From a phage: 64,000 nt of DNA. The stretch lies in sequence record NC_135730.1; one strand, written 5' to 3'. Positions 6,190 through 27,386 of this stretch are shown in pieces. The first letter of the stretch is position 1. Each line of letters begins with the position of its first letter. The translations under genes were made by a program, and so were the position numbers. The notes under the pieces are model-generated. The model worked only from the letters and a program-made list of their open reading frames with translations, was not told the origin of the DNA and did no database searches.

Positions 6190-6309
6190 ATGAGTACTAC
6201 ACGCCAGCACACAAAGGTAACTATTATCGTTTGCATCATTGGTTACATCCTGGCGCAAATGTTGATGGGTAGCGCCAACGGTATCGCAAAATTTTTCTTA
6301 AACTTTTAA
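6190..6309 (+). CDS. small hydrophobic peptide (39 aa)
   Basis: MSTTRQHTKVTIIVCIIGYILAQMLMGSANGIAKFFLNF after AAAGGGGG RBS; below track size cutoff. Confidence 0.4.
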   Translation: MSTTRQHTKVTIIVCIIGYILAQMLMGSANGIAKFFLNF

Positions 6310-6337
6310 TTGACAAGCTAACTTAGATCAGTATACT
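6310..6337 (+). promoter_or_regulatory. sigma70-type promoter
   Basis: TTGACA, 16 nt, TATACT; leader hairpin gggaaaacttccc. Confidence 0.6.
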
Positions 6338-6387
6338 AACCACATAAACGGGAAAACTTCCCAGAACACACAAAAGGAGAAAACACC

Positions 6388-6729
6388 ATGACTACTATGA
6401 CCGCCGCAGATAAAGCTATGCAGATCGCCGCGCTGAAAAAACAGATCGCAGACCTTGAGAATAAGATCGATAACTTTGAAATCGACGAGGACAAGTACGA
6501 CGAAAACTATGATGAATGGTTAGACGAGATCTACGGCGAAATTATGATCGGAAACATTTCTTTTCTTCCGTCGCGTATCCTCAAGGAGCTAGATCCTATC
6601 GCTTACCGCTGCGGATTTAGCGACTACATCGACAGCCTGGATATTGAGGACGATGAAGAATACCAGGAATTACAGACAGAGTTGGAAGAAGCAAAAGAAG
6701 AGCTTGCGGAGCTGGAAGAAAACGAGTAA
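6388..6729 (+). CDS. hypothetical acidic coiled-coil protein
   Basis: 113-aa track ORF; AAGGAG RBS. Confidence 0.65.
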   Translation: MTTMTAADKAMQIAALKKQIADLENKIDNFEIDEDKYDENYDEWLDEIYGEIMIGNISFLPSRILKELDPIAYRCGFSDYIDSLDIEDDEEYQELQTELEEAKEELAELEENE

Positions 6730-6740
6730 GATTATTTTTA

Positions 6741-6777
6741 GATGGCCTTGACTCCAGGGCCATCAATAAAGTAAACT
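6741..6777 (+). promoter_or_regulatory. palindrome-embedded promoter, copy 2
   Basis: gatggccttgactccagggccatc. Confidence 0.55.
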
Positions 6778-6818
6778 TTATACTGTTAACACTGAACTAA
6801 TGCATAGGAGTTAAAACC

Positions 6819-7064
6819 ATGGCAGCACTAATCACCAAATATTATGCCCCTACCAACACCAAAAGCGCCCGTATCATGGTAAAAGGCTTCGGACGTAAAA
6901 AGGTTTACACCTGGGATTATGCCTTAGACACGGAAGACAACTACACCAACGCGATGACCGATTTTATTAATGATCTGAACACGCGGATCTTGACAAATTA
7001 TAAAATTACCGATATTGCCTATATAGGGGAAGGCGGGATCTGTTTTGTCGGTATCGTCAAATAA
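6819..7064 (+). CDS. hypothetical protein
   Basis: 81-aa track ORF; ATAGGAG RBS. Confidence 0.6.
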   Translation: MAALITKYYAPTNTKSARIMVKGFGRKKVYTWDYALDTEDNYTNAMTDFINDLNTRILTNYKITDIAYIGEGGICFVGIVK

Positions 7065-7139
7065 GCTGTTTTTTCGGTGGTCCTGGTAGCAGGGCCATCT
7101 ATAAAGATAGTTTATCAACACAATGAAAGGAGAAAGTAC

Positions 7140-7493
7140 ATGATCAGCGGGGCAAGTTTTATTATTGGCGCTATTGCTACGGCTTTAATTGTAAACAAGA
7201 TCCAATCTAAAAACGAAAAAGAGAGCAACGCGCTCACAGAATACCCATTTTGGGTATTCAACGACAATGAAGACTACATTATCAAGTACAAGAATGAGAA
7301 GGGCGACCAGGTAACACCGCGACCGATCCCAGCTTACAAGATGCAAGAAACACTATACCGCCTAAAGGCTGGAGGCGCAAAAATCGTAGACTTTTGGGGA
7401 TATGATTGCAAGGATCAGGAGGTTATAAAGCGCCGTATCCGGGCTATTCAGGCCAATATTGAAGTTAGCAAGGGGGGAATATATGAAGATTAA
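7140..7493 (+). CDS. hypothetical protein with N-terminal hydrophobic segment
   Basis: ATG at 7140 after AAAGGAG; track ORF 7077-7493 starts at a GTG inside the upstream palindrome variant. Confidence 0.55.
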   Translation: MISGASFIIGAIATALIVNKIQSKNEKESNALTEYPFWVFNDNEDYIIKYKNEKGDQVTPRPIPAYKMQETLYRLKAGGAKIVDFWGYDCKDQEVIKRRIRAIQANIEVSKGGIYED

Positions 7494-7680
7494 TTTTGAG
7501 AAGATTGTAAAGCGATCTCATGATTCCAAAGAGCTGCCGGAACGACGCCAGCGCAACAATAAACTGAATAAGCCAAAAAGATTTGGGAAGATCTGGCGGA
7601 ATCATTATGATCGTAAATTGCCGGGCCTACTTTTGGAACGTGAACGACAGGCGGAACGATACCGCCACAAAGGCAAATAA
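7483..7680 (+). CDS. hypothetical basic protein
   Basis: ATG at 7483 within track ORF 7459-7680; followed by a terminator. Confidence 0.5.
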   Translation: MKINFEKIVKRSHDSKELPERRQRNNKLNKPKRFGKIWRNHYDRKLPGLLLERERQAERYRHKGK

Positions 7681-7687
7681 CAACCAA

Positions 7688-7716
7688 CGCCCCGCCATTG
7701 TGCGGGGCTTTTTTAT
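7688..7716 (+). terminator. rho-independent terminator
   Basis: gccccgc-cattgt-gcggggc followed by TTTTTT. Confidence 0.7.
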
Positions 7717-7863
7717 TTCTATCCTACGAATAGCGCCCCTGGTTGGCCCTGTAAACGCCATAAAAGCCCCTACCTATGCAATCCCCTTTCTTAACCTGAA
7801 AACAGCGTCTAGGGCCGTTTTATGGCGTTAAAAATGTTATTGACAGTGATTTTATTTAAAGCT

Positions 7864-7891
7864 TGACACCTTGGAATAGTCCGGATATACT
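7864..7891 (+). promoter_or_regulatory. sigma70-type promoter (second TTGACA at 7839)
   Basis: TTGACA, 16 nt, TATACT. Confidence 0.6.
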
Positions 7892-7926
7892 GACCACATC
7901 AAAGCAAGAAGGAAGGAGTAAACGCC

Positions 7927-8187
7927 ATGCGTAAATTGAAAAATTTTGATAAGGTAGATGTAGTACTGAATAATTTTTACTACTGCAATAATAAAGCCGT
8001 TTGGTGGCGTGATAGTTCCACCGATAAAGTTAAGGCGCGCTTTCTCCAAGGGCACTGGCAAGGCCGTCCAGTGATTAAAATCATGGGGCAATTGGTAGCG
8101 TTTAAAAATTGCCGCCGTGTTGATGACGTTGAAGAGATTTTAAGCATTTTGCGCCACAATAATTTAAAAAATAGTGTTGACAAGTAA
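7927..8187 (+). CDS. hypothetical protein
   Basis: 86-aa track ORF; AAGGAG RBS. Confidence 0.65.
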   Translation: MRKLKNFDKVDVVLNNFYYCNNKAVWWRDSSTDKVKARFLQGHWQGRPVIKIMGQLVAFKNCRRVDDVEEILSILRHNNLKNSVDK

Positions 8188-8204
8188 ATCTCGATAAGTA
8201 TACT
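8177..8204 (+). promoter_or_regulatory. sigma70-type promoter with leader hairpin (about 8215-8233)
   Basis: TTGACA, 16 nt, TATACT; hairpin ggcgggaaaacttcccgcc. Confidence 0.6.
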
Positions 8205-8261
8205 TAAACACACAGGCGGGAAAACTTCCCGCCACTAACAAAGAAAATAGGAGAAAATATC

Positions 8262-8885
8262 ATGACCACCGTTAACATTACCACAGGTTACAATTTATCT
8301 TTCGACGTGCTGACCGATGAACAAAAAGAAAAAGCTATTGAAATGGTCCGCGAAAGAGAAGAACACAGCGGGGATAACTTTTTTGCAGAAAGTGTAATTG
8401 AAGACTATAAAGAACATATCTTTCCAGAGTATGGCCTTGAAGATACCAAGGTACATTGGTCCGGCTTTTGGTGCCAGGGCGACGGCGCGTCAATCAGTGC
8501 GGAAAACGTGGATTTAGAAAAATTCTTGCGTAAAGTCAAGTCTCTGACTAAATTCCGCTCAATTCGTCACTTGTTCGGCACAATGCACGATGGCGAGCTA
8601 TCCGCAAGTGTTGAGCGTGATCCATATAGCCGCTATAGTCACGAAAACACTGTAAGCGGGTACATCGATACTACATGGCTAGACCTGACAGCCAAGCAAG
8701 AAAGTAAGGTTGAAGAGCTGGAAGAGCTGATCACCGAGACGGTACGGGAGCTATCCCGCAAGGTTTATGTAGACCTGGAGGAGGCCTATCTAGAACAGTT
8801 CACTACCGAAAACCTGATCGGCCTTATTGAGGCCAATGATTGGCGGTTTGATGTGGATGAATATGGAGAGATGAGTTTTTCATAA
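8262..8885 (+). CDS. hypothetical acidic protein
   Basis: 207-aa track ORF; largest gene of the early array. Confidence 0.7.
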   Translation: MTTVNITTGYNLSFDVLTDEQKEKAIEMVREREEHSGDNFFAESVIEDYKEHIFPEYGLEDTKVHWSGFWCQGDGASISAENVDLEKFLRKVKSLTKFRSIRHLFGTMHDGELSASVERDPYSRYSHENTVSGYIDTTWLDLTAKQESKVEELEELITETVRELSRKVYVDLEEAYLEQFTTENLIGLIEANDWRFDVDEYGEMSFS

Positions 8886-8974
8886 ATAAAGTGTTGCAAT
8901 AATCTAAAAACTTGCTATATTAAAACTCAAGGGGGCAAGACGTTTGCCCCACACAAAACAAAGAGGAAAACATT

Positions 8975-9355: not shown

Positions 9356-9364
9356 TCAGGTAAC

Positions 9365-9392
9365 AGGCGGCATATTTGCCGCCTTATTGTTA
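9365..9392 (+). terminator. rho-independent terminator
   Basis: ggcggca-tattt-gccgcc followed by TTATTGTT. Confidence 0.55.
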
Positions 9393-9419
9393 AACAGAAC
9401 TGCAAAAGAGGTACATAGA

Positions 9420-9791
9420 ATGGAATTTATTATTTTGGCCGTATTAGTTTCCTTGTTTAACGCCTGGATCGCTGGCAAGATGGGTAGATCCGCCTTTTTA
9501 TGGTTTATTATATCTATTTTCCTGGGGGTGGTTGCAACTATTGTACTTGTTATCCTTGCAATTGTTGACAAGGGGAATAATAGAAAGGGTAAAGTATTTT
9601 CAGACCTGTACGACGCTCAAACATTTGTCAACGCCTACTACAGCGATCTTCCAGTCTCCCTACGTTGCAGCCTTGCACAACAGGTTTTCGATGAAGCTAA
9701 AACCAGAGATCACGCCCATGAGATTTGTTTAACTGAGGCGGATCGCCTATTTGAGAGGAATAGAAAATATGTGGACCAGCCGTTTAAATAA
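9420..9791 (+). CDS. hypothetical membrane protein
   Basis: ATG at 9420 within track ORF 9387-9791; two predicted TM segments. Confidence 0.55.
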   Translation: MEFIILAVLVSLFNAWIAGKMGRSAFLWFIISIFLGVVATIVLVILAIVDKGNNRKGKVFSDLYDAQTFVNAYYSDLPVSLRCSLAQQVFDEAKTRDHAHEICLTEADRLFERNRKYVDQPFK

Positions 9792-9990
9792 TGCCACGTT
9801 AATTAATCCCTTTAGTGAAGATTTGAAGCCAGCCGCCTGGCGCGATGGATTCAATAACGAAAGCTTTATTTTCAGGCCTGATCTTAAGGAATTTTATAAC
9901 AATGGATCGAACAACGACAGAGATAATTTTTCTTGTAATGTGCGTGGTGATAATACTCCTGGGGGCCATTGCAAACCACGTCACTGCTAA
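9769..9990 (+). CDS. hypothetical Asn-rich protein (an alternative frame 9902-10027 encodes a TM peptide)
   Basis: ATG at 9769 with GAGAGGA RBS; competing overlapping frame. Confidence 0.3.
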   Translation: MWTSRLNNATLINPFSEDLKPAAWRDGFNNESFIFRPDLKEFYNNGSNNDRDNFSCNVRGDNTPGGHCKPRHC

Positions 9991-10010
9991 CAGGAGGGGA
10001 GGGGGAGACG

Positions 10011-10130
10011 ATGACAACCAAGGATAAGCCCCGCACCGATAAGGTGCGCCGTGTTATGGTATGGCTTGAGATCATCGCCCTTGAAATATTGTTAGGCGTA
10101 GGGATGTACTTTATCGCTGTAAGTAACTGA
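10011..10130 (+). CDS. small hydrophobic peptide (39 aa)
   Basis: MTTKDKPRTDKVRRVMVWLEIIALEILLGVGMYFIAVSN after AGGAGGGG RBS. Confidence 0.35.
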   Translation: MTTKDKPRTDKVRRVMVWLEIIALEILLGVGMYFIAVSN

Positions 10131-10133
10131 TAA

Positions 10134-10166
10134 CGGCCCCCAATCCCTGGGGGCTTAACTTTTTCA
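10134..10166 (+). terminator. rho-independent terminator
   Basis: gccccca/tgggggc stem followed by a T-run. Confidence 0.5.
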
Positions 10167-10471: not shown

Positions 10472-10483
10472 AATTTATTTTTA

Positions 10484-11261: not shown

Positions 11262-11300
11262 ACATAAAGGCTATGCGGTTGCATGGCCTTTATTATTTTG
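11262..11300 (+). terminator. rho-independent terminator
   Basis: 8-bp stem ggctatgc/gcatggcc followed by TTTATTATTTT. Confidence 0.55.
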
Positions 11301-11430
11301 GCGTTACAACGGCATACGGGGCGCTTAAAAATTTTTAAAAAGTACTTGCATCATTCCCGACAATATGGATAATAGGACGCATCAGGGGGGCGGCCCCCAA
11401 TCATTAACCGGATAGATAGGAGTTAAAACC

Positions 11431-12262: not shown

Positions 12263-12352
12263 AATAGCTTGACAACAAACAACCATCTAACAAAGCATAA
12301 TACATAAGGCGGTGGAATGGTCCGCCACCTGGAACAAGAAGAGGAAAACAAG

Positions 12353-12457
12353 ATGAAACAGAAATTAATTGATGCGGTGATCCTGGTTATTGCCCTGGGT
12401 ATTGGCCTGATTGCAACCATGTCTAATATGATCTTGTCTTCCAACGGTATCGGGTGA
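12353..12457 (+). CDS. small hydrophobic peptide (34 aa)
   Basis: MKQKLIDAVILVIALGIGLIATMSNMILSSNGIG after promoter, hairpin and AAGAGGA RBS. Confidence 0.4.
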   Translation: MKQKLIDAVILVIALGIGLIATMSNMILSSNGIG

Positions 12458-12773: not shown

Positions 12774-13058
12774 ATGAAAAAGATGATCGCAGTGGTTGCC
12801 CTGGTTGTTGGACTTAATGCGCCTGTAATGGCTAAAGAGCTGGCAAAAGAGGTTAATCTAACGGATATTCATGCCGTCAATCAAATCGGGGTTACTTATC
12901 GCTTATGCCTTGCCGCTAAAACTTTCCAGGACGGCACGACAGAGTACTACGGATTCGAGGGTATCCGGTGCGGTGAGCTTGCTCGCGACCTTAAGGAAGA
13001 TCCAGATCTGGAAGATCTACCCATCACCGTAAACGGTAAAGCTTACGTAAACCGTTAA
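12774..13058 (+). CDS. hypothetical secreted/periplasmic protein
   Basis: 94-aa track ORF; N-terminal signal-peptide-like MKKMIAVVALVVGLNAPVMA. Confidence 0.6.
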   Translation: MKKMIAVVALVVGLNAPVMAKELAKEVNLTDIHAVNQIGVTYRLCLAAKTFQDGTTEYYGFEGIRCGELARDLKEDPDLEDLPITVNGKAYVNR

Positions 13059-13060: not shown

Positions 13061-13195
13061 ATGAGAAAGATAACCATCACCTTGGGGATTGTGGTAGCAA
13101 TACTGGCGCTCTTTCCCCTTATGGTTAGGTATGTGCTGATCAGTGTTGTCCTGATAGTCAGTGATCTATTGGAAACGGTTGGCACCTTGTTTTAA
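13061..13195 (+). CDS. small hydrophobic peptide (44 aa)
   Basis: MRKITITLGIVVAILALFPLMVRYVLISVVLIVSDLLETVGTLF; below track cutoff. Confidence 0.35.
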   Translation: MRKITITLGIVVAILALFPLMVRYVLISVVLIVSDLLETVGTLF

Positions 13196-13944: not shown

Positions 13945-14163
13945 ATGACAACCCGTAAAATTAAAGTTGTTTGCATTGAATCGACTGGGGGCGCTTTTGT
14001 AGTTGGTCAGGAATATAATGCGGTTTTAATGGGTACGGATTGGAAGGTTAAAGGCCTTAATGGTTACGAGTACGGCACTACTTGCGGCTTGCGTGGTCGA
14101 ATCGGATACGTGAGTTTAGACAATAAAGAAAAATTTGTTTTCGACACCCTTGTGAGTAAATAG
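13945..14163 (+). CDS. hypothetical protein
   Basis: 72-aa track ORF; leader hairpin gggccaaaaggccc. Confidence 0.6.
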   Translation: MTTRKIKVVCIESTGGAFVVGQEYNAVLMGTDWKVKGLNGYEYGTTCGLRGRIGYVSLDNKEKFVFDTLVSK

Positions 14164-14240
14164 CATGAATTGCTAAAAACTGATCTGCGAACTGCTGTAT
14201 TATCAACTAATCAAAACGAACCACATAAAGAGGAAACATC

Positions 14241-14504
14241 ATGAAACGTCTGGATCAGCTTAAATTAGTTCAGTACATGGCCTACAGAATTCTTGAAGTC
14301 CAAAAAGGTAGCAAAAAAGAGGTTTGCGAGAAAGCTTATAAGATCTTTACCCGCAAAAAAGATGACTGGATGCTACGCCAGACCAAAAAGGCTGACATCT
14401 TGGGGTACCTGGAAGAAGAGATCCGCCTTGAAGAGCAAGAAGAGATCCGCCGTAGTGAGGCAGATTATCAGGCAGCTTGGGAAAGCTGGATGAGTAACAA
14501 ATAA
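14241..14504 (+). CDS. hypothetical protein
   Basis: 87-aa track ORF; AAAGAGGA RBS. Confidence 0.6.
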   Translation: MKRLDQLKLVQYMAYRILEVQKGSKKEVCEKAYKIFTRKKDDWMLRQTKKADILGYLEEEIRLEEQEEIRRSEADYQAAWESWMSNK

Positions 14505-14646
14505 TACAACAAGTTACGGTCAGGGGGTAATAAAGCCCCTTGATCACATAAAAATTATGCTATCCTTGGTTGACAAGGATCGGCAGTTTTGCTATATTCT
14601 TTTTGAAGGGAAGTTGTAAGAAAATTAACTAAGAGGTAAAAACACC

Positions 14647-15066
14647 ATGAACATTAAATCTAATAATCCGGCATATAGCTTTGATAACGCTTTTTGTCAC
14701 GGTCCGGCGGCGAAAGGATTCGAAATCGATGGTAAACTAATTATTGTCAATGTTGACGGGGAAGAGGTTGCAGTATATCCGGTGGCAGACGTTAAAAGCC
14801 GTTTGCAATGCCGCATGGATGTTACCGCCTATCAGCTTGATCCGGTCCGCATAGTTGCCCTGGTCCTGGAAGAAGAAATTAAAGCCATGCACCATAGCAA
14901 CAGGTTTATTGGTGACGCTCAGGATAATATGAAGGTATGCCGCTATAAAGTTAATGAAGTGCTTAAAGAATATGGATTTAAGGATCTGATGATCAAACGT
15001 GATGAAAAATTCCGCTACCGTAACGACCTGGCAAATCGGATTTTTGAAATATACGAATCATTATAA
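14647..15066 (+). CDS. hypothetical protein
   Basis: 139-aa track ORF; TTGACA/TATATT promoter at about 14567-14600. Confidence 0.65.
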   Translation: MNIKSNNPAYSFDNAFCHGPAAKGFEIDGKLIIVNVDGEEVAVYPVADVKSRLQCRMDVTAYQLDPVRIVALVLEEEIKAMHHSNRFIGDAQDNMKVCRYKVNEVLKEYGFKDLMIKRDEKFRYRNDLANRIFEIYESL

Positions 15067-15084
15067 TTTTTTAACTGAATTATC

Positions 15085-15110
15085 AAGGGGCTTAGGCCCC
15101 TTTCTTTTTG
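15085..15110 (+). terminator. rho-independent terminator ending the + strand early block
   Basis: aagggg-cttag-gcccct followed by TTCTTTTTG. Confidence 0.65.
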
Positions 15111-17500
15111 TCTGCTCTTCCCCCTACCATAAACGGCCCTACCTGGCAAGTGGAATAATTGACGAGCCATCAATCCCACACACTGTACAAATATACATGT
15201 AAAATAGCTATTGCATAACCTTTCATTGTGTGGTAGCAGGGCTATTTTACCCGTTTTCCCTTCCAAAATTGCACGTAATGCCGCTATTGCACAAATTTTA
15301 ACCTGATGCAGATCTTCAATATCTTGTCAACAAATAAAAATTCTTATAAGTCATACACTTACACCAACACAAAAGCGTTTTCTACGTGAAAAATCGAGTA
15401 TAACTATAGCCGCCAGATCTCAGAATTTACGTACGCTCACCATTCTATAGCCTGCTAAGTATTTATTCCAACCATAGAATAATGGAATAGTCAATACCTG
15501 CATAAAATAATTATTCGTTTAAATTGCATAACATAAATCAGCCAGGGTGTCAACATTTTTCGTAAACAGTCCGAAATTATCGCTGTGAATTATCATAAAC
15601 AGAGAAATCTTTAGTCGTCTAATGTTTACTGTACGTTACTATACTGACTGGAATCATTAGATGACTAAGAGAAAGATAAGAAATAATTAACAATACAATT
15701 ATTTTATCTGTAACAATAAGGCAACTATGCAAACGAATGGCATGGCGCGACGGAGTCGCGACATAATATAAAAGCAGTAACCATCACCCCCGTGATAGTT
15801 TGTCTGCAATCTATTAATCAGATCATAGTTGCCTTGTATTTAGTTAATCATGACATAACAAGCAAGGCAACTATAGATCTTCTAATAGTTGCCCTGCTTT
15901 TATATTATGTCATAGAAACACCCGAAGGGGTGACCAAAGGTCACCTGGCATAGCCAGCGAAAGATTATTAACTTGCTAATCGTTATCATGCAAACGAATG
16001 GCATGGCTTATAATTTTTGAGCAAATAGTCTATACGTGAACAGTGAGGCATGCAATAGTAACAATTGTTATTATATCCAGTGTTTAGTATGCCCAGTGTG
16101 TCAAAGGTGTCTAAAGTGTCAGACAAGTTTTTCTCCTCTTTGTCAAGTGCTGCATGAAAAATTTACAATCTGGTATGGTAGCATTTTTGCGGCCCTGTTT
16201 ACATCCAGTTGTGTATGTATAACCCTTGTTGTGTGGGCGTTTAGACGTCTGGACGGTTGGAAGTCTACAGGTCAATATCTAATCTATCGGCTGCTAACTA
16301 TATCCCACACAAATAGTAAGAAATATAATTGTTATATGCGTAAACAGTAACTCATGTTATCAATCCCTGTATGTATCGCCAGTGGTGCGCATAATGGGTA
16401 TTATGTTAAATTGCCCGTAATGATAATGGTTCTCACAATGATATGTATTCTCATTCCCCCACACAAAATAGATTGCAAATGTTGTGCCACTATGTGAACG
16501 GCCTCACCTATTAATTTGCCTCACTGCCTCGATATTTGAGAATTGTTATAAGAATGAGAAGTATTCCCATTTCGTCCGCCTGGCAGCACTCCTGTCGGTC
16601 AGGTCAAAATCGTGGTATAACTGGACCTGTTCAGATATTTCTGGCTGACTCTTCAGGCCTGTGTGGGAAAAGCCGACCCCTCCGGCGGCGGGGAGGGGGT
16701 CAATTAAAAAATTTACGGGGTATATGAAGCGCTCTTCAGGTAAGGCAGGTATTATGGGATGAAACCCTCTTCAGGTAATGATATTTGTGGGTGTGATATT
16801 TGCTGGAAAGCCAGATATGACGGGACTCCCGGCGGGGCAGGGGTAGTACAGACAGGGAAAATATGGAGGATGTGGTTGGGTAAATTGATCAGACAGGTAG
16901 AGTATGGAATATGTTATGAATATGTTAAATATAGAGGTTGAATATCTGTAGGATTTGTGTGTAAAATCAAAGACTTAAGTGGTGTTGTGGTATTTTCTAT
17001 AAATAATTCAAGTTTAATAGGTGATATTTGTCCCTATCTACTTTGTGTGGTAAACAGATTCAGATGAGATTGGTTTACGAGTGTATACATAATATACAAA
17101 TTAAAGATACAAGAAACCCCCCTCCCCCTTCGGCTACCATTCACCTTTTCCTCTGACTGGTACTTAAACACTTATTCAGACTCTTCAGGTTATCACCCAT
17201 ATATCATATGGCAGTGACTGGTGTCCTCCGGCCCCTCTTTCGTCACCCGTCCGCTTCGCCATGCTAATGCCATAGCCAAATGTTCGGTTGTTCACCCTGT
17301 TCACTCAGGTGTATCTCCATACCCCTTCAAACCGAAGAGAACAGAAAACCCGAATTACTCGGTAAAAGAAAAGAGAAGAACTTAATTTTATCAGGATAGG
17401 CAAGAATGTCAAGGCATGACTGCTCACTAAACAAGCAAACAGTCATGTGTGGGAGGTAAGTGATTGTGGTGGTGGGAAATTTAGTTGAAAGATGTGCTAC
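15111..17500. other. 2.4 kb non-coding repeat-rich region at the convergence of the two transcription blocks
   Basis: no credible ORF with RBS; nested inverted repeats 15757-15915, duplicated atgcaaacgaatggcatggc, four ctcttcagg repeats, CCCCTCCCCC motifs. Confidence 0.6.
16672..16705 (-). terminator. candidate minus-strand terminator
   Basis: gacccctcc/ggagggggtc hairpin followed on the minus strand by GGCTTTTCC. Confidence 0.35.
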
Positions 17501-17877: not shown

Positions 17878-18090
17878 TCATAGTCTACCACCTCTGAACT
17901 CTTCGTGCTCAGGCATAATAGAGAACCAGATATCTACGATGTCTTCCCACGTTAGGTCATCAGCCTCAGGATCTACCTGGAGCGAAGATGGAGAATCTTC
18001 AGAATCGAAGTTTTCCTCTTGCACTGGCTCAGTCAAGGGACATATAGTCACTCCTTTGGATGTCTCTTCAGATGCATGTGTGTTTATCAT
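17878..18090 (-). CDS. hypothetical acidic protein
   Basis: ATG at 18090 overlapping the stop of an upstream 29-aa TM peptide (ATGA coupling); within track ORF 17878-18291. Confidence 0.4.
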   Translation of the reverse strand: MINTHASEETSKGVTICPLTEPVQEENFDSEDSPSSLQVDPEADDLTWEDIVDIWFSIMPEHEEFRGGRL

Positions 18091-18176
18091 GTTCCACCCG
18101 TGAGTATTCCGGCAACAGCCACTATGGACGTAATGATCATCAGGATCACCACCAAAACCTCTGACAATGTTTTCAT
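18087..18176 (-). CDS. small hydrophobic peptide (29 aa)
   Basis: MKTLSEVLVVILMIITSIVAVAGILTGGT downstream of a minus-strand TTGACA promoter near 18225-18255. Confidence 0.3.
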   Translation of the reverse strand: MKTLSEVLVVILMIITSIVAVAGILTGGT

Positions 18177-18450
18177 TGTGTATCCCATATTCTCCAAACG
18201 ATGTGTGGATACTATCACTGGAGCGGCAATGTGTCAACAGAAACGCCGCGAGGGTTTGGTTAAAATCCGAGCGTATGGTGATTTGGGTCAAAACGGACGT
18301 GCGTTCTCGCTACGCTCGAAAAAGAGAGTTGTTTGTAGGAAGCTCTTAAACGCTCTGTAAGGAGATTATCTGTCCAAGGTATGCAATCGTGCACCAGATA
18401 AAGAAAAGGACGCCACAGAGCGTCCTAGGTGTCTTAAATTTGATATTTTG

Positions 18451-19472: not shown

Positions 19473-19724
19473 TTAACGTTCTACAAAAATACCGTTCAGT
19501 TCAATAACCAGGAATTTCTGGTCTTCACTATCGTCTCGTGCCAGCACCTCACAGACGTATCGGTCATCCCCATCATCATCGCAGTCAAATACAAGACTGA
19601 GGACTTTATCATGGTAAACCTTCGCCACTACCGCCTCGTAAGTATTGCCGATTGTGAATCCAAGATAATCTCCGATGCATTTGACAACAACATGGTCTCC
19701 AGCATTTAAGTCAATCTTCGTCAT
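19473..19724 (-). CDS. hypothetical acidic protein
   Basis: ATG at 19724 after AAGGAG; within track ORF 19473-19790. Confidence 0.55.
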   Translation of the reverse strand: MTKIDLNAGDHVVVKCIGDYLGFTIGNTYEAVVAKVYHDKVLSLVFDCDDDGDDRYVCEVLARDDSEDQKFLVIELNGIFVER

Positions 19725-19879
19725 TACTGCGCTCCTTGGGTAATAATACTGTATGTAAAACTTTAACCAGAGATGTGAATAACGCCCCAAAACACACCGA
19801 TAGCGCTAAAACAGACAAGGCCATCATTAAAGCTTCAGTAAAATCAGTCATTCCTCACCTCTTGTTAGTCACTATACTA

Positions 19880-20143
19880 TCATTTATCCTTGTCGTCAAG
19901 AACTTTTTTAAATCTTTCAGGGATATCTCCCGTTCTTAGATAGTTCATGACCTCGCAAGGTTCCCACTTGAATTTCTTACAGAGCAGGGCGGCTGAGATT
20001 GTTTCATTGCGAAAAGAAAGGATATTAATATCCCACTCTGAGAACCCCAACTTCCGAAGGGTAGCTACAGAAATCCTCACCGCAACCCAGCAGCAAAAAC
20101 ATGCAACAAACGCCACTGCTACAACCCACATCAGGATGTTCAT
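19880..20143 (-). CDS. hypothetical membrane protein
   Basis: 87-aa track ORF; N-terminal TM ILMWVVAVAFVACFCCWVAV. Confidence 0.55.
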   Translation of the reverse strand: MNILMWVVAVAFVACFCCWVAVRISVATLRKLGFSEWDINILSFRNETISAALLCKKFKWEPCEVMNYLRTGDIPERFKKVLDDKDK

Positions 20144-20232
20144 ATAAGCACCTTACTGAAATACAAGACACAGTGTTAAGGTTACTGACCAGCAAATAAT
20201 TAACAGTGCCGTTGCAACCTTGGCAAGATTTA

Positions 20233-20520
20233 TCATAGTGCCTCTAAGATTTCATATCCTTCGGGTCGGAATACAAGCCACTCCGTGGCTCCGTTTGGTC
20301 GATACGCTTTATACAGAACAACCTGGTCTCGGCACATGCACATGGCTACATAGTTTTCATCCACACCTGCAGCCTGCATTGCATCTTCTTCTCCGGCAAC
20401 TGCTTTGCTTACAACTTCCTTGGTAGGCAGGTGTGCGATCAGCTCGTCACCATCATTAATTCCAAAATGGCCGAGTTCGCCGTTGGTATCTTTAATCTTA
20501 ATCTTAACCAGATCTTTCAT
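20233..20520 (-). CDS. small acidic protein
   Basis: 95-aa track ORF in tightly packed operon. Confidence 0.6.
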   Translation of the reverse strand: MKDLVKIKIKDTNGELGHFGINDGDELIAHLPTKEVVSKAVAGEEDAMQAAGVDENYVAMCMCRDQVVLYKAYRPNGATEWLVFRPEGYEILEAL

Positions 20521-22893: not shown

Positions 22894-23030
22894 TTAGAGG
22901 TCTCCTCAATTATTTGATATTAATAGCCGTAACCTAACACATTAACTACAACTGCGATTGCAAACATAATTTCAAAGCATGCAATCTCTACATTTGGGAC
23001 TAGTTTCTTAATCACGCCCATTGTAGCACC

Positions 23031-23348
23031 TCATTCTCCAAAGTCAATCTTTACTTTGCCTTTCCCCTTACCTTTCTTTCCACCGCATTTAGCCAGCTGA
23101 CGTGCTGCAACATCTACCATACGGTCAGTTGCCTCGTAAGCATCACCACCTTTAGCCTTGGCAATAACTTCTTTTCCAGAATTGTCAAAAATGAGCGCCA
23201 TAACTTCCTGGTGATCATTTTCAACTTTTACACTCACACGTGCATAGTTGGCAGAGGGGTGCAAACGCTCCAGCTTAGACATTTTGTGGGAAATGAAAGA
23301 CACCATACCTTCAGTGATTTCTACGTTGCCAGTGATTTCAATTTGCAT
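23031..23348 (-). CDS. hpf: ribosome hibernation-promoting factor (HPF/RaiA family) homolog with Lys/Gly-rich C-terminal tail
   Basis: MQIEITGNVEITEGM...KLERL...VKVEN...ARQLAK parallels E. coli HPF MQLNITGNNVEITEAL...KLEQY...LKVEK...ARQLTK as recalled. Confidence 0.65.
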   Translation of the reverse strand: MQIEITGNVEITEGMVSFISHKMSKLERLHPSANYARVSVKVENDHQEVMALIFDNSGKEVIAKAKGGDAYEATDRMVDVAARQLAKCGGKKGKGKGKVKIDFGE

Positions 23349-23430
23349 AACGTGTTCCTTTTAAAGAAGAGGGAACCAAACCCTCTTTGAAAACAATGAT
23401 ACTAAATCTGAAGCGTTGTGTCAACAGTTT

Positions 23431-23721: not shown

Positions 23722-23738
23722 GGTGACACCTCACTGTT

Positions 23739-24137: not shown

Positions 24138-24149
24138 AACGGTTACCCA

Positions 24150-24621: not shown

Positions 24622-24905
24622 CGGTCTCCATCGGGTGGTTGTGGGACGTAAACACTGTTACGAATATCGTCAGCAGTGTAGTAATAAGTGGTTCCAACCC
24701 TGTCTCGGGCTGCAATGTACTCTGCTATACCAATAAGTGCCATTGATTTGGTGGCGTATCTTCCCAACTCGTTAGCTCCCCAGTAGAGTTTAGACCAGTA
24801 GGGAATAAGACCGAACAAATATACCTTTTGACGAACTTCCCAGTAAGTGCCTTTTCCGACAAGTTTAAACTCTACTTCACTACTGTTAATCTTTTTCATT
24901 ATCAA
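24618..24905 (-). CDS. hypothetical protein
   Basis: 95-aa track ORF. Confidence 0.6.
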   Translation of the reverse strand: MIMKKINSSEVEFKLVGKGTYWEVRQKVYLFGLIPYWSKLYWGANELGRYATKSMALIGIAEYIAARDRVGTTYYYTADDIRNSVYVPQPPDGDR

Positions 24906-25198
24906 TCTCCCTCTACCGTGGTCGGATTGTCAGTAAGAAATTGAGCATTGGCTGGAGGCACGCCTGACATTTTCCACACAACCATAAGTTTGTAACCAGG
25001 CACTCTATTAAGTGCAGATCGAGTAGAGTTTGTGCACGTATACTTTCGCTTTCCAAACCCGTTCTCCATCATAATCCAGTACCCAGTATCTTTGTCACCA
25101 GGTATCGGTAGACCACCTTCATCAACCCACTGAATGGACCACGGCACGATGGCTACAGCTTTATATTTAAACTTTTTAAACCACTCAAAAAGTTTCAT
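24902..25198 (-). CDS. hypothetical protein
   Basis: 98-aa track ORF. Confidence 0.6.
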   Translation of the reverse strand: MKLFEWFKKFKYKAVAIVPWSIQWVDEGGLPIPGDKDTGYWIMMENGFGKRKYTCTNSTRSALNRVPGYKLMVVWKMSGVPPANAQFLTDNPTTVEGD

Positions 25199-25383
25199 AA
25201 TTCAGCCTCGCTTGGCAACTCTTCTACCTTAACATGCCGAAAAGTGTTACCGTAATGGTTGATCCATGACATCAGCTCGCTTTCTTGCTCTTCCTCTGGG
25301 ATGAACTCTCGAATGCTGACAAGTTTTAAGAAAACCCAATCACAATCTGCACCCATTCTACCAGACAGGCAATAGTGCTTCAT
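25195..25383 (-). CDS. hypothetical protein
   Basis: 62-aa track ORF, overlapping stop/start. Confidence 0.5.
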   Translation of the reverse strand: MKHYCLSGRMGADCDWVFLKLVSIREFIPEEEQESELMSWINHYGNTFRHVKVEELPSEAEL

Positions 25384-25401
25384 AAAACCCTCCTGCCTGG
25401 T

Positions 25402-25596
25402 TTAGAATATTGCTTCTTCCATTGCGCCTGAGAGCAACAAAGAGGTGATCTGGCTAACATTCATCTCAGACTCTACTTCCTCCCCTTTGAAAGGTTCGCG
25501 GCAGAATAGGACTGTTTCAGGACTTTTACTTCGAACAATATAATACAAATCATTCAATGTGTTGTAGTAATAAGTGTTAAAACGTAAGTTTTTCAT
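25402..25596 (-). CDS. hypothetical protein
   Basis: 64-aa track ORF. Confidence 0.5.
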   Translation of the reverse strand: MKNLRFNTYYYNTLNDLYYIVRSKSPETVLFCREPFKGEEVESEMNVSQITSLLLSGAMEEAIF

Positions 25597-25880
25597 TTTC
25601 TAGTCCTCTTCTTAGATTTTTGGGGAGAAACGCTTTCTGCAATACGAGACAGACGTTCTTCTGAAGCCTTACCTACTCCAGGTTTTTTGAGTGGATTATC
25701 TTTATGACCACAATCCAACTGGATATTGGATACCTCTCCAACTTTGTAAGTCAATTCTAGCAAAAGGTTGTCGTCCTTGTCAAATGTTTTTACGATAAAT
25801 TTTTTATCGTTCTCCTGAACTTCATATCTGGTACCTGCAGTATACAGCATGGTGCCATCAGCATAGGATATCCAGATCAT
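25593..25880 (-). CDS. hypothetical protein with basic C-terminus
   Basis: 95-aa track ORF. Confidence 0.55.
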   Translation of the reverse strand: MIWISYADGTMLYTAGTRYEVQENDKKFIVKTFDKDDNLLLELTYKVGEVSNIQLDCGHKDNPLKKPGVGKASEERLSRIAESVSPQKSKKRTRK

Positions 25881-26224
25881 TGAGCCTCCTTTTGCTGCAA
25901 CAGCATTAACTCTTTGTTAGAGATCTTTACTGCTGTTTTTATTGTTCCATCTTCACGAAACCACGACCAGAACTCTACAGTGTCACCACTATCAAGTAAA
26001 GCATGCCCATGGTAAAAATCTTTGTCCTTAGACAGTTTCTCATCTATATCTGCATCAACACATTCGTGATCCATAGCATTTTGCCTGAACGCATCGGTTA
26101 TGCCAATGCACGCCTTGCTCTCAAGACTGGTATATCCGATATCTTTTAATTCAGTTTCCCAAGTCCAGTACCCTATAAAAGCTAAAACAGCTACCCACAG
26201 TAATAACGTTTTAATCTTTGGCAT
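25877..26224 (-). CDS. hypothetical exported/membrane-anchored protein
   Basis: 115 aa; N-terminal hydrophobic LLLWVAVLAFIGYW. Confidence 0.55.
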   Translation of the reverse strand: MPKIKTLLLWVAVLAFIGYWTWETELKDIGYTSLESKACIGITDAFRQNAMDHECVDADIDEKLSKDKDFYHGHALLDSGDTVEFWSWFREDGTIKTAVKISNKELMLLQQKEAQ

Positions 26225-26286
26225 TCTCTCTACCTCTTTCTTAGTTTATTTCACTATGGCACATCCTTTGTGCCATATCTCAACTA

Positions 26287-26757
26287 CTACTTAAATAGTA
26301 GTTCAAAATAGTGCAAAATTAACAGAAGTTGAACTACACCTAGTGCAACGGCGAGTATGTTAATCTTAGAATCGAAAAACTTCTTAACTTTTACTCTAAA
26401 AGGTTCCTTAATGTCCTTTACGATCCTATCTATAGATGACCTCATATCTCTGATTACCATCCTGAACATTAAAGACGGATGCTCCCCCATCTCTGTAACG
26501 GAATCGAAAACATACTCTCTTCGGTCATAAGGGCCGCCAGCTCTGCGTATTAACCTCTCCACAGAGACCTCGAACGTCACACCTGTAACGTAATCATCTA
26601 TAACAAGTCGTGACGGGTCTTTACCTTTACTATCAAGAGGTATCAAAGTTATCTTTCCAGATTTTGTTAAAATTTCCCCTTTTTCAAGCAAGGTGTACCA
26701 ATGCTCTCTGCCAAGACTGTTGAGGCACGTTTTTACATATTTAACAAACATCGTCAC
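26287..26757 (-). CDS. hypothetical protein with C-terminal TM anchor
   Basis: 156 aa; C-terminal ILAVALGVVQLLLILHYF. Confidence 0.55.
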   Translation of the reverse strand: MTMFVKYVKTCLNSLGREHWYTLLEKGEILTKSGKITLIPLDSKGKDPSRLVIDDYVTGVTFEVSVERLIRRAGGPYDRREYVFDSVTEMGEHPSLMFRMVIRDMRSSIDRIVKDIKEPFRVKVKKFFDSKINILAVALGVVQLLLILHYFELLFK

Positions 26758-26939
26758 CCCTCATCGCACGTCTGATATAACCACTCTATAAAATCTTGAT
26801 ACCATTCGCCCTCTGAGCGCTCCGTAGGCCAATAATCTTCACCCTCTCGTGCATTAAAATCTGAGTATTCAACTTTCCACTCCTTTACCAGCTCGTGGAG
26901 AAGGTTTTCAGCCTGCTCTAAAGATTTATTTTTTACCAT
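26754..26939 (-). CDS. hypothetical acidic protein
   Basis: ATG at 26939 after AAAAAGGAGA; track ORF starts at upstream TTG. Confidence 0.5.
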   Translation of the reverse strand: MVKNKSLEQAENLLHELVKEWKVEYSDFNAREGEDYWPTERSEGEWYQDFIEWLYQTCDEG

Positions 26940-27022
26940 TGCTGTCTCCTTTTTCAAGATAGTTATACATCAGAACTGCACCACCTAAGATGGCTACCAG
27001 TAACAATATCCCAGATAGCATC

Positions 27023-27175
27023 TCAATAAACATGGCTTGAAACACTGGAAGGTCTCCCTAAATTAACGCACCATTTTAAATACATGCTCTTTTCCCATAA
27101 AGGTGCCTGGCTAAGATCTGCGTAGAACGCAATCTCTTTAAGAACAGTATAGATAGTTTTAGGTGCGGTCTCCAT
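27023..27175 (-). CDS. hypothetical small protein
   Basis: ATG at 27175 (METAPKT) after AGGAAGGAGAG. Confidence 0.35.
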   Translation of the reverse strand: METAPKTIYTVLKEIAFYADLSQAPLWEKSMYLKWCVNLGRPSSVSSHVY

Positions 27176-27386
27176 CCCTACTCTCCTTCCTGATATTCTT
27201 GTAGTAATCAACTAGGCACATTATTACGATGAAGATAACAACAGGCCAAAAAGGTGCAGCAGTGATGATGGTGATAAAATCATCAAACTTCACCCTTCGT
27301 CTGGACACGATGCATACACCTGTCAAGAATACCGCTGTTATAACGGACATTACCAGGTAACCTATTAGCACAACATTTATACTCAT
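27159..27386 (-). CDS. small two-TM membrane protein (holin-like topology)
   Basis: 75 aa; two hydrophobic helices and charged C-terminus KNIRKESRDGDRT. Confidence 0.45.
   Translation of the reverse strand: MSINVVLIGYLVMSVITAVFLTGVCIVSRRRVKFDDFITIITAAPFWPVVIFIVIMCLVDYYKNIRKESRDGDRT

Follow-up and report, generated by a model that had tools for sequence, protein, structure and literature searches.

Conserved genes for very small predicted membrane proteins in the accessory arrays of an rV5-like Vequintavirus genome

The window, a 64,000-nt stretch of NC_135730.1, is part of an rV5-like Vequintavirus genome and shows 95–98% identity to many GenBank records. The rV5-like vequintaviruses are a well-known E. 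coli phage group. Nine short ORFs (c1–c9) are dispersed among short accessory genes that form two convergent arrays:

c1, 6190–6309, plus strand: 39 aa, one TM helix, predicted N-in; rV5 gp193 ortholog
c2, 9902–10027, plus strand: 41 aa, one TM helix, predicted N-out/C-in
c3, 10011–10130, plus strand: 39 aa, basic N-terminus and TM helix; rV5 gp181
c4, 12353–12457, plus strand: 34 aa, single-TM; rV5 gp173
c5, 13061–13195, plus strand: 44 aa, very hydrophobic, one or two helices; rV5 gp170
c6, 18087–18188, minus strand: 29–33 aa, single-TM; AlexBoehm bas56_0133
c7, 19711–19851, minus strand: 46 aa, single-TM, predicted N-out/C-in; rV5 gp156
c8, 26926–27045, minus strand: 35–39 aa, single-TM, predicted N-out/C-in; rV5 gp131
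c9, 27159–27386, minus strand: 75 aa, two TM helices, charged tail; rV5 gp129

All nine small hydrophobic ORFs proposed in a first-pass annotation were recovered (9/9), each with a hydrophobic stretch of at least 19 residues. TM segments were called throughout from hydropathy and flanking charges alone; the best 19-residue Kyte-Doolittle means (KD19) range from 2.08, seen for c1, to 3.08, and the hydrophobic core of each peptide has charges on its flanks. Two small TM ORFs had been left out of that list:

20153–20236, minus strand: hydrophobic ORF of 27 aa, unannotated in rV5 and AlexBoehm
22920–23021, minus strand: single-TM peptide of 33 aa; rV5 gp145 ("membrane protein"), phrog_15151

The 27-aa ORF overlaps the stop of its upstream gene by 4 nt, has no PHROG match and is unbroken in 10 loci, where its only 3 variable alleles (2 synonymous) give low power. 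The 29-aa TM gene bas56_0157 is missing from the window, a case of presence/absence variation.

Earlier annotation of these genes had also been overlooked. The list of Kropinski et al. (2013) already contains seven of the nine, with gp193, gp181, gp173, gp170, gp156 and gp131 of rV5 described as "membrane protein, 1 TMD", so the set is largely known. The exact c1 sequence is present in GenBank as a hypothetical protein, and c6 is annotated in BASEL phages.

Are such short ORFs genuine genes? When ORFs of 25–60 aa with an ATG start, an SD motif of 4 nt or more and a KD19 of 2.0 or higher were counted, nine were found on the coding strands and none on the non-coding strands (758 vs 699 start sites). 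The reading frames of c1–c9 are unbroken in every relative compared (9–16 related loci). For seven of the ORFs, changes lean towards synonymous ones in the proposed frame alone: 12–18 synonymous and 11–25 non-synonymous alleles were counted there, as against 1–9 and 17–37 in the other frames. The selection statistics draw on 5–13 unique variants and on non-independent pairwise sums. The pN/pS of c1 is 0.25 in frame vs 0.78 and 3.77 in the other frames, and values of 0.20–0.22, 0.38, 0.22 and 0.35 were obtained for c3, c4, c6 and c7, respectively. Constraint on the candidate peptides is weaker than on neighboring genes. A decoy ORF (11283–11372) used as negative control gave 5/23, 5/21 and 5/20 synonymous/non-synonymous alleles across frames, loses its start codon in relatives and thus behaves as non-coding. 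In the curated annotation of the homologous 23 kb of AlexBoehm, hydrophobic products are encoded by 9/13 CDS of at most 50 aa and by 5/55 longer ones (Fisher p = 2e-5).

PHROG families were matched by c1 (phrog_16391, E = 2e-31), c3 (phrog_13629), c4 (phrog_14631), c5 (phrog_16005), c6 (phrog_34195), c7 (phrog_16755), c8 (phrog_15251) and c9 (phrog_10061), but not by c2. The families are genus-restricted, but three of them, those of c4, c5 and the secreted c5 partner, also occur in Phapecoctavirus. In Phapecoctavirus ESCO5 the c4 ortholog (locus L016, 2407–2511) is syntenic, unbroken, unannotated and 59% identical at the aa level, and the c5 ortholog (4179–4313 of the same locus) is unbroken and 77% identical. 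A positional ortholog of c8 with 54% identity lies on a divergent phage contig (L018, 4373–4486), and c9 has a syntenic ortholog in a divergent phage that is 29% identical.

Some of the ORFs might still be chance open frames or annotation artefacts, as very short ORFs arise easily. Within the genus c8, like the 27-aa ORF, has too few variable sites for selection counts, c9 is ambiguous (9/15 synonymous/non-synonymous alleles in frame vs 9/14 in the +1 frame), c5 is under weak constraint (pN/pS 0.65) and c2 overlaps an annotated ORF. Yet all of them remain open in every relative, occur on coding strands only and fill gaps between genes; c4, c5, c8 and c9 are kept at the identities given above in other genera or divergent phages; the frame test described below comes out in favor of c2; and the decoy shows what a non-gene looks like. 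Chance frames are thus highly improbable, and c1–c9 are, judging from their conservation, genuine genes for very small predicted membrane proteins.

Ribosome-binding sites had been proposed upstream of the ORFs. An SD-like motif 4–12 nt upstream was found for c1, c2, c3, c4, c7 and c9 (AAGGGAGG for c9), but c5 and c6 have none, nor does c8 when started at ATG. Where it is absent the ORFs are linked to their neighbors: c5 starts 2 nt past the stop of the upstream gene, the c6 stop overlaps the start of the next gene (ATGA), and c8 overlaps the genes on both sides by 14–23 nt. Similar arrangements are seen for c7 (14-nt overlap with the next gene) and c4 (next gene 9 nt further on). Such short gaps and overlaps support the frequent translational coupling suggested earlier, and in many cases the coupled gene encodes a small soluble or secreted protein. 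The partner of c5 lies directly upstream of it:

12774–13058, plus strand: 94 aa with a cleavable-looking signal peptide (MKKMIAVVALVVGLNAPVMA/KE)

This protein (phrog_9845, pN/pS 0.28) is 83% identical in ESCO5, where the c5 ortholog is again the next gene. The c4 peptide carries a conserved C-terminal motif, ATMxNMILSSxGIG. Its start was placed at 12353; a start at 12317 was rejected because the upstream extension is disrupted in AlexBoehm. For c8, GTG 27045 (39 aa, as in rV5 gp131) is more likely than ATG, since GGGAG lies 8 nt upstream as SD sequence and the distant ortholog begins MWQAVVIEML. The c6 start may be 18188 (33 aa) or 18176 (29 aa).

A consensus scan identified conserved promoter-like sites upstream of four of the ORFs:

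6129–6158, plus strand: sigma-70-like promoter of c1, TTGACA-18-TAAACT
18237–18209, minus strand: sigma-70-like promoter of c6
19899–19871, minus strand: promoter-like site of c7
27414–27442, minus strand: sigma-70-like promoter directly upstream of c9, TTGACA-17-TAGTAT

The sigma-70-type sites match 10–11 of the 12 consensus positions, lie on the coding strand only and are conserved: in nine aligned related variants the -10 hexamer of the c1 promoter is invariant and its -35 hexamer varies at the sixth base alone, and relatives keep both hexamers of the c9 promoter. The conserved sites upstream of c1, c6, c7 and c9 are of the sigma-70 type, not of the proposed late type, and expression timing is predicted from these consensus matches. 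Proteomics of rV5 detected gp133, gp137 and gp152, products of the window's minus-strand array, in virions, so this array is not all strictly early.

Two of the peptides, c2 and c3, belong to a compact hairpin-flanked cassette (9420–10130) with the following additional features:

9365–9384: second hairpin, upstream of the cassette
9420–9791, plus strand: 123-aa protein, two TM helices at the N-terminus and then a soluble tail of 73 aa; rV5 gp183 family, phrog_13090
9769–9990, plus strand: rV5 ORF182 homolog, phrog_12060
10135–10155, plus strand: terminator-like hairpin closing the cassette, from the consensus scan and, independently, a terminator in the EdH4 annotation

The first-pass annotation had overlooked that c2 (9902–10027) overlaps an annotated ORF in another frame, c2 lying in the +1 frame relative to the ORF182 homolog. 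The pN/pS of the ORF182 homolog is 0.29 in 9769–9901 vs 1.08 in 9902–9987, and its stop position differs among relatives; constraint is limited to the first ∼44 codons and the tail overlapping c2 is neutral. In the c2 frame the overlap has a pN/pS of 0.31, with 15 synonymous and 14 non-synonymous alleles vs 4 and 25 (Fisher p = 0.0045), and c2 is unbroken in all 12 unique variants. Compared frame by frame in this way, selection points to c2 as the frame under constraint, even though, of the 17 annotated records checked at the locus, a single one (Gotham, F10B_0188) annotates it and most annotate the overlapping ORF. The first 17 nt of c3 are shared with the end of c2, and the c3 TM helix contains two invariant Glu residues.

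The 123-aa protein is labelled "putative holin" in BASEL records; the curators had screened every small TM protein before picking it. Its constraint is the strongest among the membrane proteins of the region (pN/pS 0.07), its aa identity is 93.5% or higher across 118 records, every one of them from the genus, and the cassette unites three membrane proteins of opposite predicted orientation. The cassette might therefore be a lysis-timing module in which the 123-aa protein would be the holin and c2 and/or c3 antiholin-type regulators. Against this, the 123-aa protein has no holin-family match (nor any match in Pfam, NCBIfam or PDB), carries a 73-aa mixed-charge C-terminal domain instead of a short basic tail and is encoded 41 kb from the endolysin. 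The array is rich in sigma-70-type promoters and an upstream late motif was not found, while relatives outside the genus in which adjacency could be checked were not found either. We consider such a module very unlikely.

The endolysin (50703–51173) was correctly noted to lack an adjacent holin, as no holin-like gene adjoins it. Two further features of the window give the context:

50433–50639, minus strand: protein of 68 aa, hydrophobic signal or anchor at the N-terminus, encoded 64 nt downstream of the endolysin
61229–61911, plus strand: i-spanin and o-spanin pair (phrog_4297 and phrog_1267, "Rz-like spanin")

The 68-aa protein (phrog_4641, function unknown in PHROGs) is not holin-like. Across 119 close records of the Vequintavirus type its identity never falls below 95.6%, and phages of Serratia, Salmonella and Acinetobacter supply four remote matches, each under 60%. 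The spanin pair lies far from the endolysin and likewise from the candidate peptides, and none of c1–c9 adjoins the endolysin or the spanins.

The two-TM protein c9 had been named among the holin candidates. Its architecture is indeed holin-like, but taking it as the best holin-like candidate is not new, as rV5 gp129 was listed as "putative holin, 2 TMD" (Kropinski et al., 2013). As a class-II-type holin, c9 would have two TM segments, its N- and C-termini on the cytoplasmic side and a basic tail there, and would let out the soluble lambda-R-like endolysin, whose gene lies 23 kb away. This endolysin has neither a signal nor a SAR sequence and hence requires a holin. In T4, too, the holin gene t is separate from the endolysin gene e. 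Members of the family are 75–78 aa long, have two TM segments and a tail rich in Lys, Arg and Glu, and are present in 115 records of the genus as well as the divergent syntenic phage. Identity falls to 55–57% within the genus, where the loop and TMD2 motif KFDDFITIITAAPFWPVV is nearly invariant, and remote relatives share the architecture, always with a basic tail.

Several observations nevertheless argue against a lysis role for c9. No holin family is matched in Pfam, NCBIfam or PHROGs, and c9 adjoins neither endolysin nor spanins here or in relatives. It is the first gene of an overlapping block (c9-gp130h-c8-gp132h-gp133h) in which it diverges fastest (29% vs 43–88% identity for its neighbors), and directly upstream lies the conserved sigma-70-type promoter, the late-type motif not being found. 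The basic inter-helix loop SRRRVK speaks against an N-in/C-in topology, and the upstream "putative glycosidase" is without muralytic similarity. For LL12, annotators at the Center for Phage Technology (CPT) made no holin call, stating explicitly that a holin could not be identified, and the late region outside the window has other membrane proteins. A lysis role for c9 is thus unlikely.

The first-pass annotation was right in describing small membrane-protein genes that are often coupled, and its list of possible roles was reasonable, but none of the specific functions was borne out, as c1–c9 match no holin, antiholin, Imm/Sp or toxin family in Pfam, NCBIfam or PHROGs. The single-pass peptides could instead be host-killing membrane toxins, acting by pores or depolarization in host shut-off rather than in exclusion or regulation. 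With 27–46 aa, a single hydrophobic helix and short charged flanks they recall type I toxins such as Hok and TisB, which form pores or depolarize the membrane. The two Glu residues of c3 are compatible with an ion-conducting oligomer, and several of the peptides have early-type promoters upstream. However, they show no sequence relationship to any toxin family in these databases, and about a dozen distinct depolarizing toxins in one phage would be redundant. Specific protein interactions are suggested by the conserved non-TM motifs that c4 and c5 retain and by the co-translation of many of the peptides with particular soluble or secreted partners. A general toxin function therefore seems quite unlikely.

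Our preferred reading, to which we give a probability of roughly 0.6 on the sequence evidence, is that c1–c9 and their kin are a mixed set of small, probably early accessory inner-membrane proteins and mostly not lysis genes. They would represent about a dozen unrelated families rather than one system, and at most one protein in the window, either c9 or the 123-aa protein, would be a holin. The genes would be transcribed early or continuously by host RNA polymerase, and the peptides may insert in the inner membrane and act on components of the host envelope by binding or perturbing them, possibly in superinfection exclusion, in a block of host membrane proteins or membrane-bound defences, or in membrane depolarization. 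The genus-restricted ORFans among the families count towards this accessory character, as do the presence/absence variation and the weaker constraint noted above, and each peptide is probably individually dispensable. In this respect the set may resemble the small genes of phage PhiKZ, 185 of 210 of which tolerate transposon insertion.

A megablast search with positions 6000–28000 and 44000–56000 of the window returned more than 100 phage records at 90–98% identity, including rV5, FFH2, Murica, the BASEL vequintaviruses and about 20 records labeled 'UNVERIFIED Campylobacter phage'. The window is therefore part of the genome of a Vequintavirus, i.e., an rV5-like myovirus of E. coli. The Campylobacter records (MG0656xx; loci L003, L004, L006, and L010–L012) are 95–98% identical to the window phage, and they probably carry a wrong host label or are contaminants. 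In the tRNA cluster of the window (59995–60807), ARAGORN calls a 'tRNA-???' at 60464–60562 (+) that is 99 nt long and has atcc as its four-base anticodon; it could be an intron-containing, degenerate or frameshift-suppressor-like tRNA.

Short genes form two convergent arrays, one on the plus strand (end at about 15066) and one on the minus strand (end at about 17500), separated by some 2.4 kb without ORFs. The layout is the same in the rV5 paper, with '88 mainly small ORFs', transcription units 10-1-238-164 and 82-163, and a block between the convergent arrays that is termed 'non-coding'. GC content is lower in 14001–16000 (0.389), and the motif ATAGTTGCCYTG is repeated in both orientations at 15711–15911, inside the ORF-free block (15100–17450). 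An Rfam scan of this block gave no meaningful match, only one sub-threshold chance match. This block may serve as an origin or have a regulatory role.

All nine ORFs that the first-pass annotation had listed as encoding small hydrophobic peptides are found in these arrays and translate as it described, with a best 19-residue mean hydropathy of 2.08–3.08.

Small hydrophobic ORFs of the two arrays, with in-frame pN/pS among relatives and, where present, the promoter consensus match directly upstream
c1, 6190–6309 (+), single-TM peptide; pN/pS 0.25; promoter 6129–6158
c2, 9902–10027 (+), single-TM peptide; pN/pS 0.35
c3, 10011–10130 (+), single-TM peptide; pN/pS 0.22
c4, 12353–12457 (+), single-TM peptide; pN/pS 0.38
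c5, 13061–13195 (+), peptide with one or two predicted TM helices; pN/pS 0.65
c6, 18087–18188 (−), single-TM peptide; pN/pS 0.22; promoter 18237–18209
c7, 19711–19851 (−), single-TM peptide; pN/pS 0.35; promoter 19899–19871
c8, 26926–27045 (−), single-TM peptide; pN/pS 0.21 (substitutions too few for a selection test)
c9, 27159–27386 (−), two-TM protein; pN/pS 0.40; promoter 27442–27414

The ribosome-binding sites claimed for these ORFs held up in part: an SD-like motif lies 4–12 nt upstream of c1, c2, c3, c4, c7, and c9, and c5 starts 2 nt past the preceding stop. The proposed translational coupling to neighbors agrees with the overlaps or tight gaps seen at c5, c6, c7, c8, and c9. The stop codon of c6 overlaps the start of the next gene (ATGA), and c7, c8, and c9 overlap their neighbors by 14–23 nt. 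The start of c8 is most likely the GTG at 27045, which matches the start in rV5 and that of a distant ortholog beginning MWQAVVIEML; c6 may start at 18188. For c4 the start was placed at 12353 since the longer start used in rV5 is broken in phage AlexBoehm; the start of the rV5 counterpart (gp173) is annotated 12 codons too early.

Hydrophobic ORFs of 25–60 aa with an ATG and an SD motif occur nine times on the coding strands of the whole window and not at all on the non-coding strands, at similar numbers of candidate start sites (758 and 699, respectively). Conservation was assessed in up to 15 related loci, giving 5–13 unique variants per ORF; these were taken from GenBank phage records, as an IMG/VR scan for relatives gave only two loci. 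The start and stop of the nine ORFs are kept in nearly all relatives. For most of them the other two frames give a pN/pS of 0.5–3.8, the exception being c9 with 0.42 in the +1 frame. Allele counts agree with pN/pS for seven ORFs and are ambiguous for c9 within the genus (9/15 vs. 9/14, synonymous/non-synonymous). A negative control ORF (11283–11372), which overlaps a terminator hairpin, gave 5/23, 5/21, and 5/20 across the three frames, and in relatives its start is lost and internal stops appear. In the curated annotation of AlexBoehm, 9 of the 13 CDSs of at most 50 aa are hydrophobic, compared with 5 of the 55 longer ones (p = 2e-5). The nine ORFs are genuine, conserved genes for very small predicted membrane proteins, located in promoter-rich arrays of accessory ORFans, and the peptides are often co-translated with partner ORFs.

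The arrays also contain five larger ORFan products (87–154 aa) with a hydrophobic helix at the N- or C-terminus:
19880–20143 (−), helix-bearing ORFan
7140–7493 (+), helix-bearing ORFan
3483–3815 (+), helix-bearing ORFan
25877–26224 (−), helix-bearing ORFan
26287–26751 (−), helix-bearing ORFan

The arrays thus encode more membrane proteins than the first-pass annotation lists. Among these five, only 19880–20143 lacks a TM flag in the rV5 table, with the counterpart of 7140–7493 not established. The 29-aa TM gene bas56_0157 of AlexBoehm (MIASILTFMGGVAFGFIVCLFIVIMSMRG; 20063–20152 in the AlexBoehm locus L001) has no counterpart in the window, where 25370–25480 (−) was compared with it, and small membrane genes thus vary in presence and absence within the genus.

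Both the literature and the databases already carry annotations for the listed features. Table S3 of Kropinski et al. (2013) gives 'membrane protein, 1 TMD' for gp193 (c1), gp181 (c3), gp173 (c4), gp170 (c5), gp156 (c7), and gp131 (c8) as well as for gp145 (22920–23021), 'membrane protein, 1-2 TMD' for gp183 (9420–9791) and 'putative holin, 2 TMD' for gp129 (c9). The 1-TMD gene products and gp129 of rV5 are directly orthologous to those of the window and occupy matching positions in the genome, with 76–100% aa identity and a separate PHROG family for each, and the small-ORF loci are collinear with the annotated loci of rV5 and AlexBoehm. Differences from rV5 are allelic only; c9, for example, has 75 aa here and 78 aa in rV5 (three tail residues fewer). 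Missing from the rV5 annotation are c2, c6 and a 27-aa ORF at 20153–20236 (−). The latter is a second unannotated candidate besides c2 and is intact in 10 loci, with low-powered statistics, as its substitutions are too few for a selection test. Annotations of c6 are found in AlexBoehm and MiataMamis, and GenBank has identical entries for c1, c3, and c4, annotated as hypothetical proteins. Exact-sequence look-up is unreliable for absence: it returned c7 as 'not in the collection' though AlexBoehm annotates c7.

Full-length PHROG profile matches were obtained for c1 and c3–c9 (E = 3e-19 to 6e-40) and for 22920–23021 (3.7e-26), the families being 16391, 13629, 14631, 16005, 34195, 16755, 15251, 10061, and 15151. 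Those matched by eight of the nine ORFs have no assigned function, and neither c2 nor the 27-aa ORF matched a PHROG. The 33-aa membrane peptide of 22920–23021 had been overlooked in the first-pass annotation. Directly upstream of it, in the middle of the small-gene array, lies a RaiA/HPF homolog (23031–23348 (−), rV5 gp144), a phage-encoded ribosome hibernation factor known from published annotations.

By DNA and tblastn comparison the families do not extend beyond the genus, apart from the c4/c5 block, which Phapecoctavirus has as well. ESCO5, a Phapecoctavirus belonging to another subfamily than the window phage, has intact and syntenic orthologs of c4 (59% aa identity) and c5 (77%) that are unannotated in its RefSeq record. 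A divergent metagenomic contig of a vequintavirus-like phage (L018; Logan DRR842904, 1–6459), whose genes are 29–88% identical at the aa level, carries orthologs of c8 (54% identity) and c9 (29%) with the ClpP-to-gp137 gene order whole. In this contig an extra 68-aa Cys-rich ORF is inserted just ahead of the c9 ortholog. Our additions to the existing annotation are modest, i.e., frame evidence for c2, the 27-aa candidate, the ESCO5 orthologs of c4 and c5 and the more distant orthologs of c8 and c9.

Within the set only c2 is partly new. It overlaps a 73–81-aa ORF, the homolog of rV5 ORF182 (9769–9990 (+)), by 89 nt in the +1 frame. Most records annotate the ORF182 homolog at this locus, and among 17 annotated records only that of phage Gotham has c2 itself (F10B_0188); annotators favor the longer of the two overlapping ORFs, which leaves c2 systematically mis-annotated. 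The ORF182 frame is under constraint in the part that precedes 9902 (pN/pS 0.29). Within the overlap this frame is neutral (1.08) and the position of its stop codon shifts, and it is the c2 frame that is constrained (0.31), with 15/14 synonymous/non-synonymous alleles in the c2 frame vs. 4/25 in the ORF182 frame (Fisher p = 0.0045). A +1 slip at the conserved TTT-T (9892–9895) within GAA-TTT-TAT (9889–9897) could in principle join c2 and the ORF182 homolog in one product. However, the ATG at 9902 is conserved together with an AAGGA/GAGGA motif 11 nt upstream, which makes initiation of c2 on its own the simpler explanation, and programmed frameshifting was set aside as the main reading for this reason.

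Strong sigma-70-type promoter matches (10–11/12) are confined to the coding strand of each array. The −10 hexamers of the four promoters directly upstream of c1, c6, c7, and c9 are conserved in relatives, and so are the −35 hexamers except for the last base in the c1 promoter and a single variant in the c6 promoter. The late-promoter motif proposed for rV5 (TGGTAAAATA) gave 16 one-mismatch hits, compared with an expectation of 7, and no hit precedes c9 or 9420.

Flanking charges predict an N-in orientation with almost no C-terminal tail for c1, c3, c4, c5, c6, the 27-aa ORF and 22920–23021, and an N-out orientation with a basic C-terminal tail for c2, c7, and c8. Two invariant Glu residues are located inside the helix of c3. 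The c5 gene follows that of a 94-aa signal-peptide protein with two Cys residues (12774–13058 (+)), and the pair is found in ESCO5 (L016 3892–4313) with 83 and 77% aa identity. In the minus-strand array c9, the gp130 homolog, c8 and the homologs of gp132 and gp133 form an overlapping block; the gp133 homolog has a C-terminal TM helix and is found in rV5 virions.

The endolysin (50703–51173) is a soluble lambda-R-like enzyme (phrog_90), and a holin is therefore needed. As the first-pass annotation had noted, there is none beside it: the holin candidates c9 and a 123-aa protein (9420–9791 (+), gp183 family) are 23 and 41 kb away, respectively, and the spanins are at 61229–61911. Class II holins of the S21 type have two TM helices, an N-in/C-in topology and a basic cytoplasmic tail. 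With its holin-like size, two hydrophobic helices and charged tail (about +6/−5 in the 78-aa form, basic in remote relatives), c9 resembles these proteins. Unlike them, it has no family membership, no dual-start motif and no adjacency to endolysin or spanins, and it has a conserved sigma-70-type promoter and a basic inter-helix loop. The c9 family diversifies to 55–57% identity in a genus that is otherwise 90–98% identical, with a nearly invariant loop-plus-TMD2 motif (KFDDFITIITAAPFWPVV); in one of the 'UNVERIFIED Campylobacter phage' records (C2, L003) c9 is frameshifted. A profile search of 1.84 billion representatives found only three remote relatives, which have the same architecture; none belongs to a holin family, and no lysin adjoins the two whose contigs were looked up.

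Membership of a holin family was found for none of the candidates (Pfam, NCBIfam, and PHROGs), and Pfam, NCBIfam, and PDB sequence searches with c9, the 123-aa protein, c5, c7, and the larger neighbors gave nothing above threshold. In Certrevirus, CB7_82 (65 aa, two TM helices) is a proposed class II holin located downstream of the SleB-like CB7_83 (PMC7344957). Like c9 it is a small two-TM proposed holin from the wider rV5-related group without a classic lysis cassette. The upstream neighbor of c9, in contrast, showed no similarity to cell-wall hydrolases by sequence or in a low-confidence model. This 174-aa protein (27417–27941) is a 'putative glycosidase' in BASEL, and a muralytic enzyme at this position found no support in sequence or model: only three homolog clusters were found, the AlphaFold model is of low confidence (pLDDT 63), and the best Foldseek PDB match was to NTF2/SnoaL-like folds (E = 0.066, TM ≈0.25). 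The annotators of phage LL12 (Center for Phage Technology) stated that they were unable to find its holin, and the KPP-1 paper reports likewise for KPP-1.

The BASEL curators placed 'putative holin' on the gp183 homolog and not on gp129. The 123-aa protein of this family has two hydrophobic helices and a 73-aa mixed-charge domain, is very strongly conserved (pN/pS 0.07, at least 93.5% identity) and showed neither a family match nor relatives beyond the genus. It lies with the ORF182 homolog, c2, and c3 between two hairpins, the downstream one being an annotated terminator in EdH4. Read as a lysis-timing module, this cassette (9420–10130) would combine the conserved two-TM protein with a soluble module of 44 codons and a pair of single-pass peptides in opposite orientations; c2, a member of this pair, might itself be a fusion produced by +1 frameshifting at GAA-TTT-TAT. 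We consider it very unlikely that the cassette is the missing holin/antiholin module of Vequintavirus, and a lysis role for either c9 or the cassette would be a minority reading.

Other lysis candidates are present as well. The rV5 late region, outside the window, encodes the further membrane proteins gp29 and gp31. At 50433–50639 (−), 64 nt downstream of the endolysin, a 68-aa protein carries a hydrophobic signal or anchor at its N-terminus (MKDFLLAILFMAACLACGVVFAG, which includes a lipobox-like MAAC), and its acidic tail has two Cys residues. It belongs to phrog_4641, is at least 95.6% identical in 119 close records of the Vequintavirus type and gave remote hits to phages of Serratia, Salmonella, and Acinetobacter; the protein could act with the lysis system as a periplasmic or lipoprotein partner. 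Given these candidates, the holin is perhaps none of the listed peptides. The interpretation first put forward is supported only in part: the small membrane protein genes stand, and none of the proposed exclusion, holin or toxin roles gained specific support.

By analogy with T4 Imm and Sp, with small bacterial membrane proteins and with a transposon screen of PhiKZ, in which insertions were tolerated in 185 of 210 small genes, we infer that the host RNA polymerase would drive early expression of the peptides and that these would modulate the host envelope, each being dispensable on its own. The literature searched held nothing specific on transcriptomics, Ribo-seq or essentiality in Vequintavirus. 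Phages of the rV5 type are common in therapeutic and biocontrol cocktails, and tiny ORFans account for about 88 of their genes. The present result gives a short list for small-protein work and for annotation fixes, including c2 and the c4 and c5 orthologs of ESCO5; no new kind of system is revealed.

The smallest proteins of bacteria are often single-pass membrane proteins. The single-TM peptides described here (<60 aa, one TM helix) share with type I toxins and other bacterial small membrane proteins of at most 50 aa their length, the single TM helix and the enrichment of TM helices among the smallest products. They differ from type I toxins in being phage-encoded, co-translated with partner ORFs and without homology to them. 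With regard to control by a cis-encoded antisense RNA, a consensus scan found no strong opposite-strand promoters (at least 10/12) in the arrays.

In T4, a large virulent myovirus, superinfection exclusion is the role of Imm and Sp, which are early proteins of the membrane and periplasm. No sequence similarity to them emerged for the proteins searched in Pfam and PDB: Imm/Sp domains were absent from 9420–9791, c9, and 12774–13058 in Pfam, and a PDB sequence search with 12774–13058 returned nothing, its single-sequence model (pLDDT 49) being unusable for fold comparison. The likeness is one of type and position, since the peptides described here too are small, predicted to be membrane or periplasmic proteins and encoded among presumably early accessory genes, and the pair of the secreted 94-aa protein and c5 comes closest to the Imm/Sp layout.
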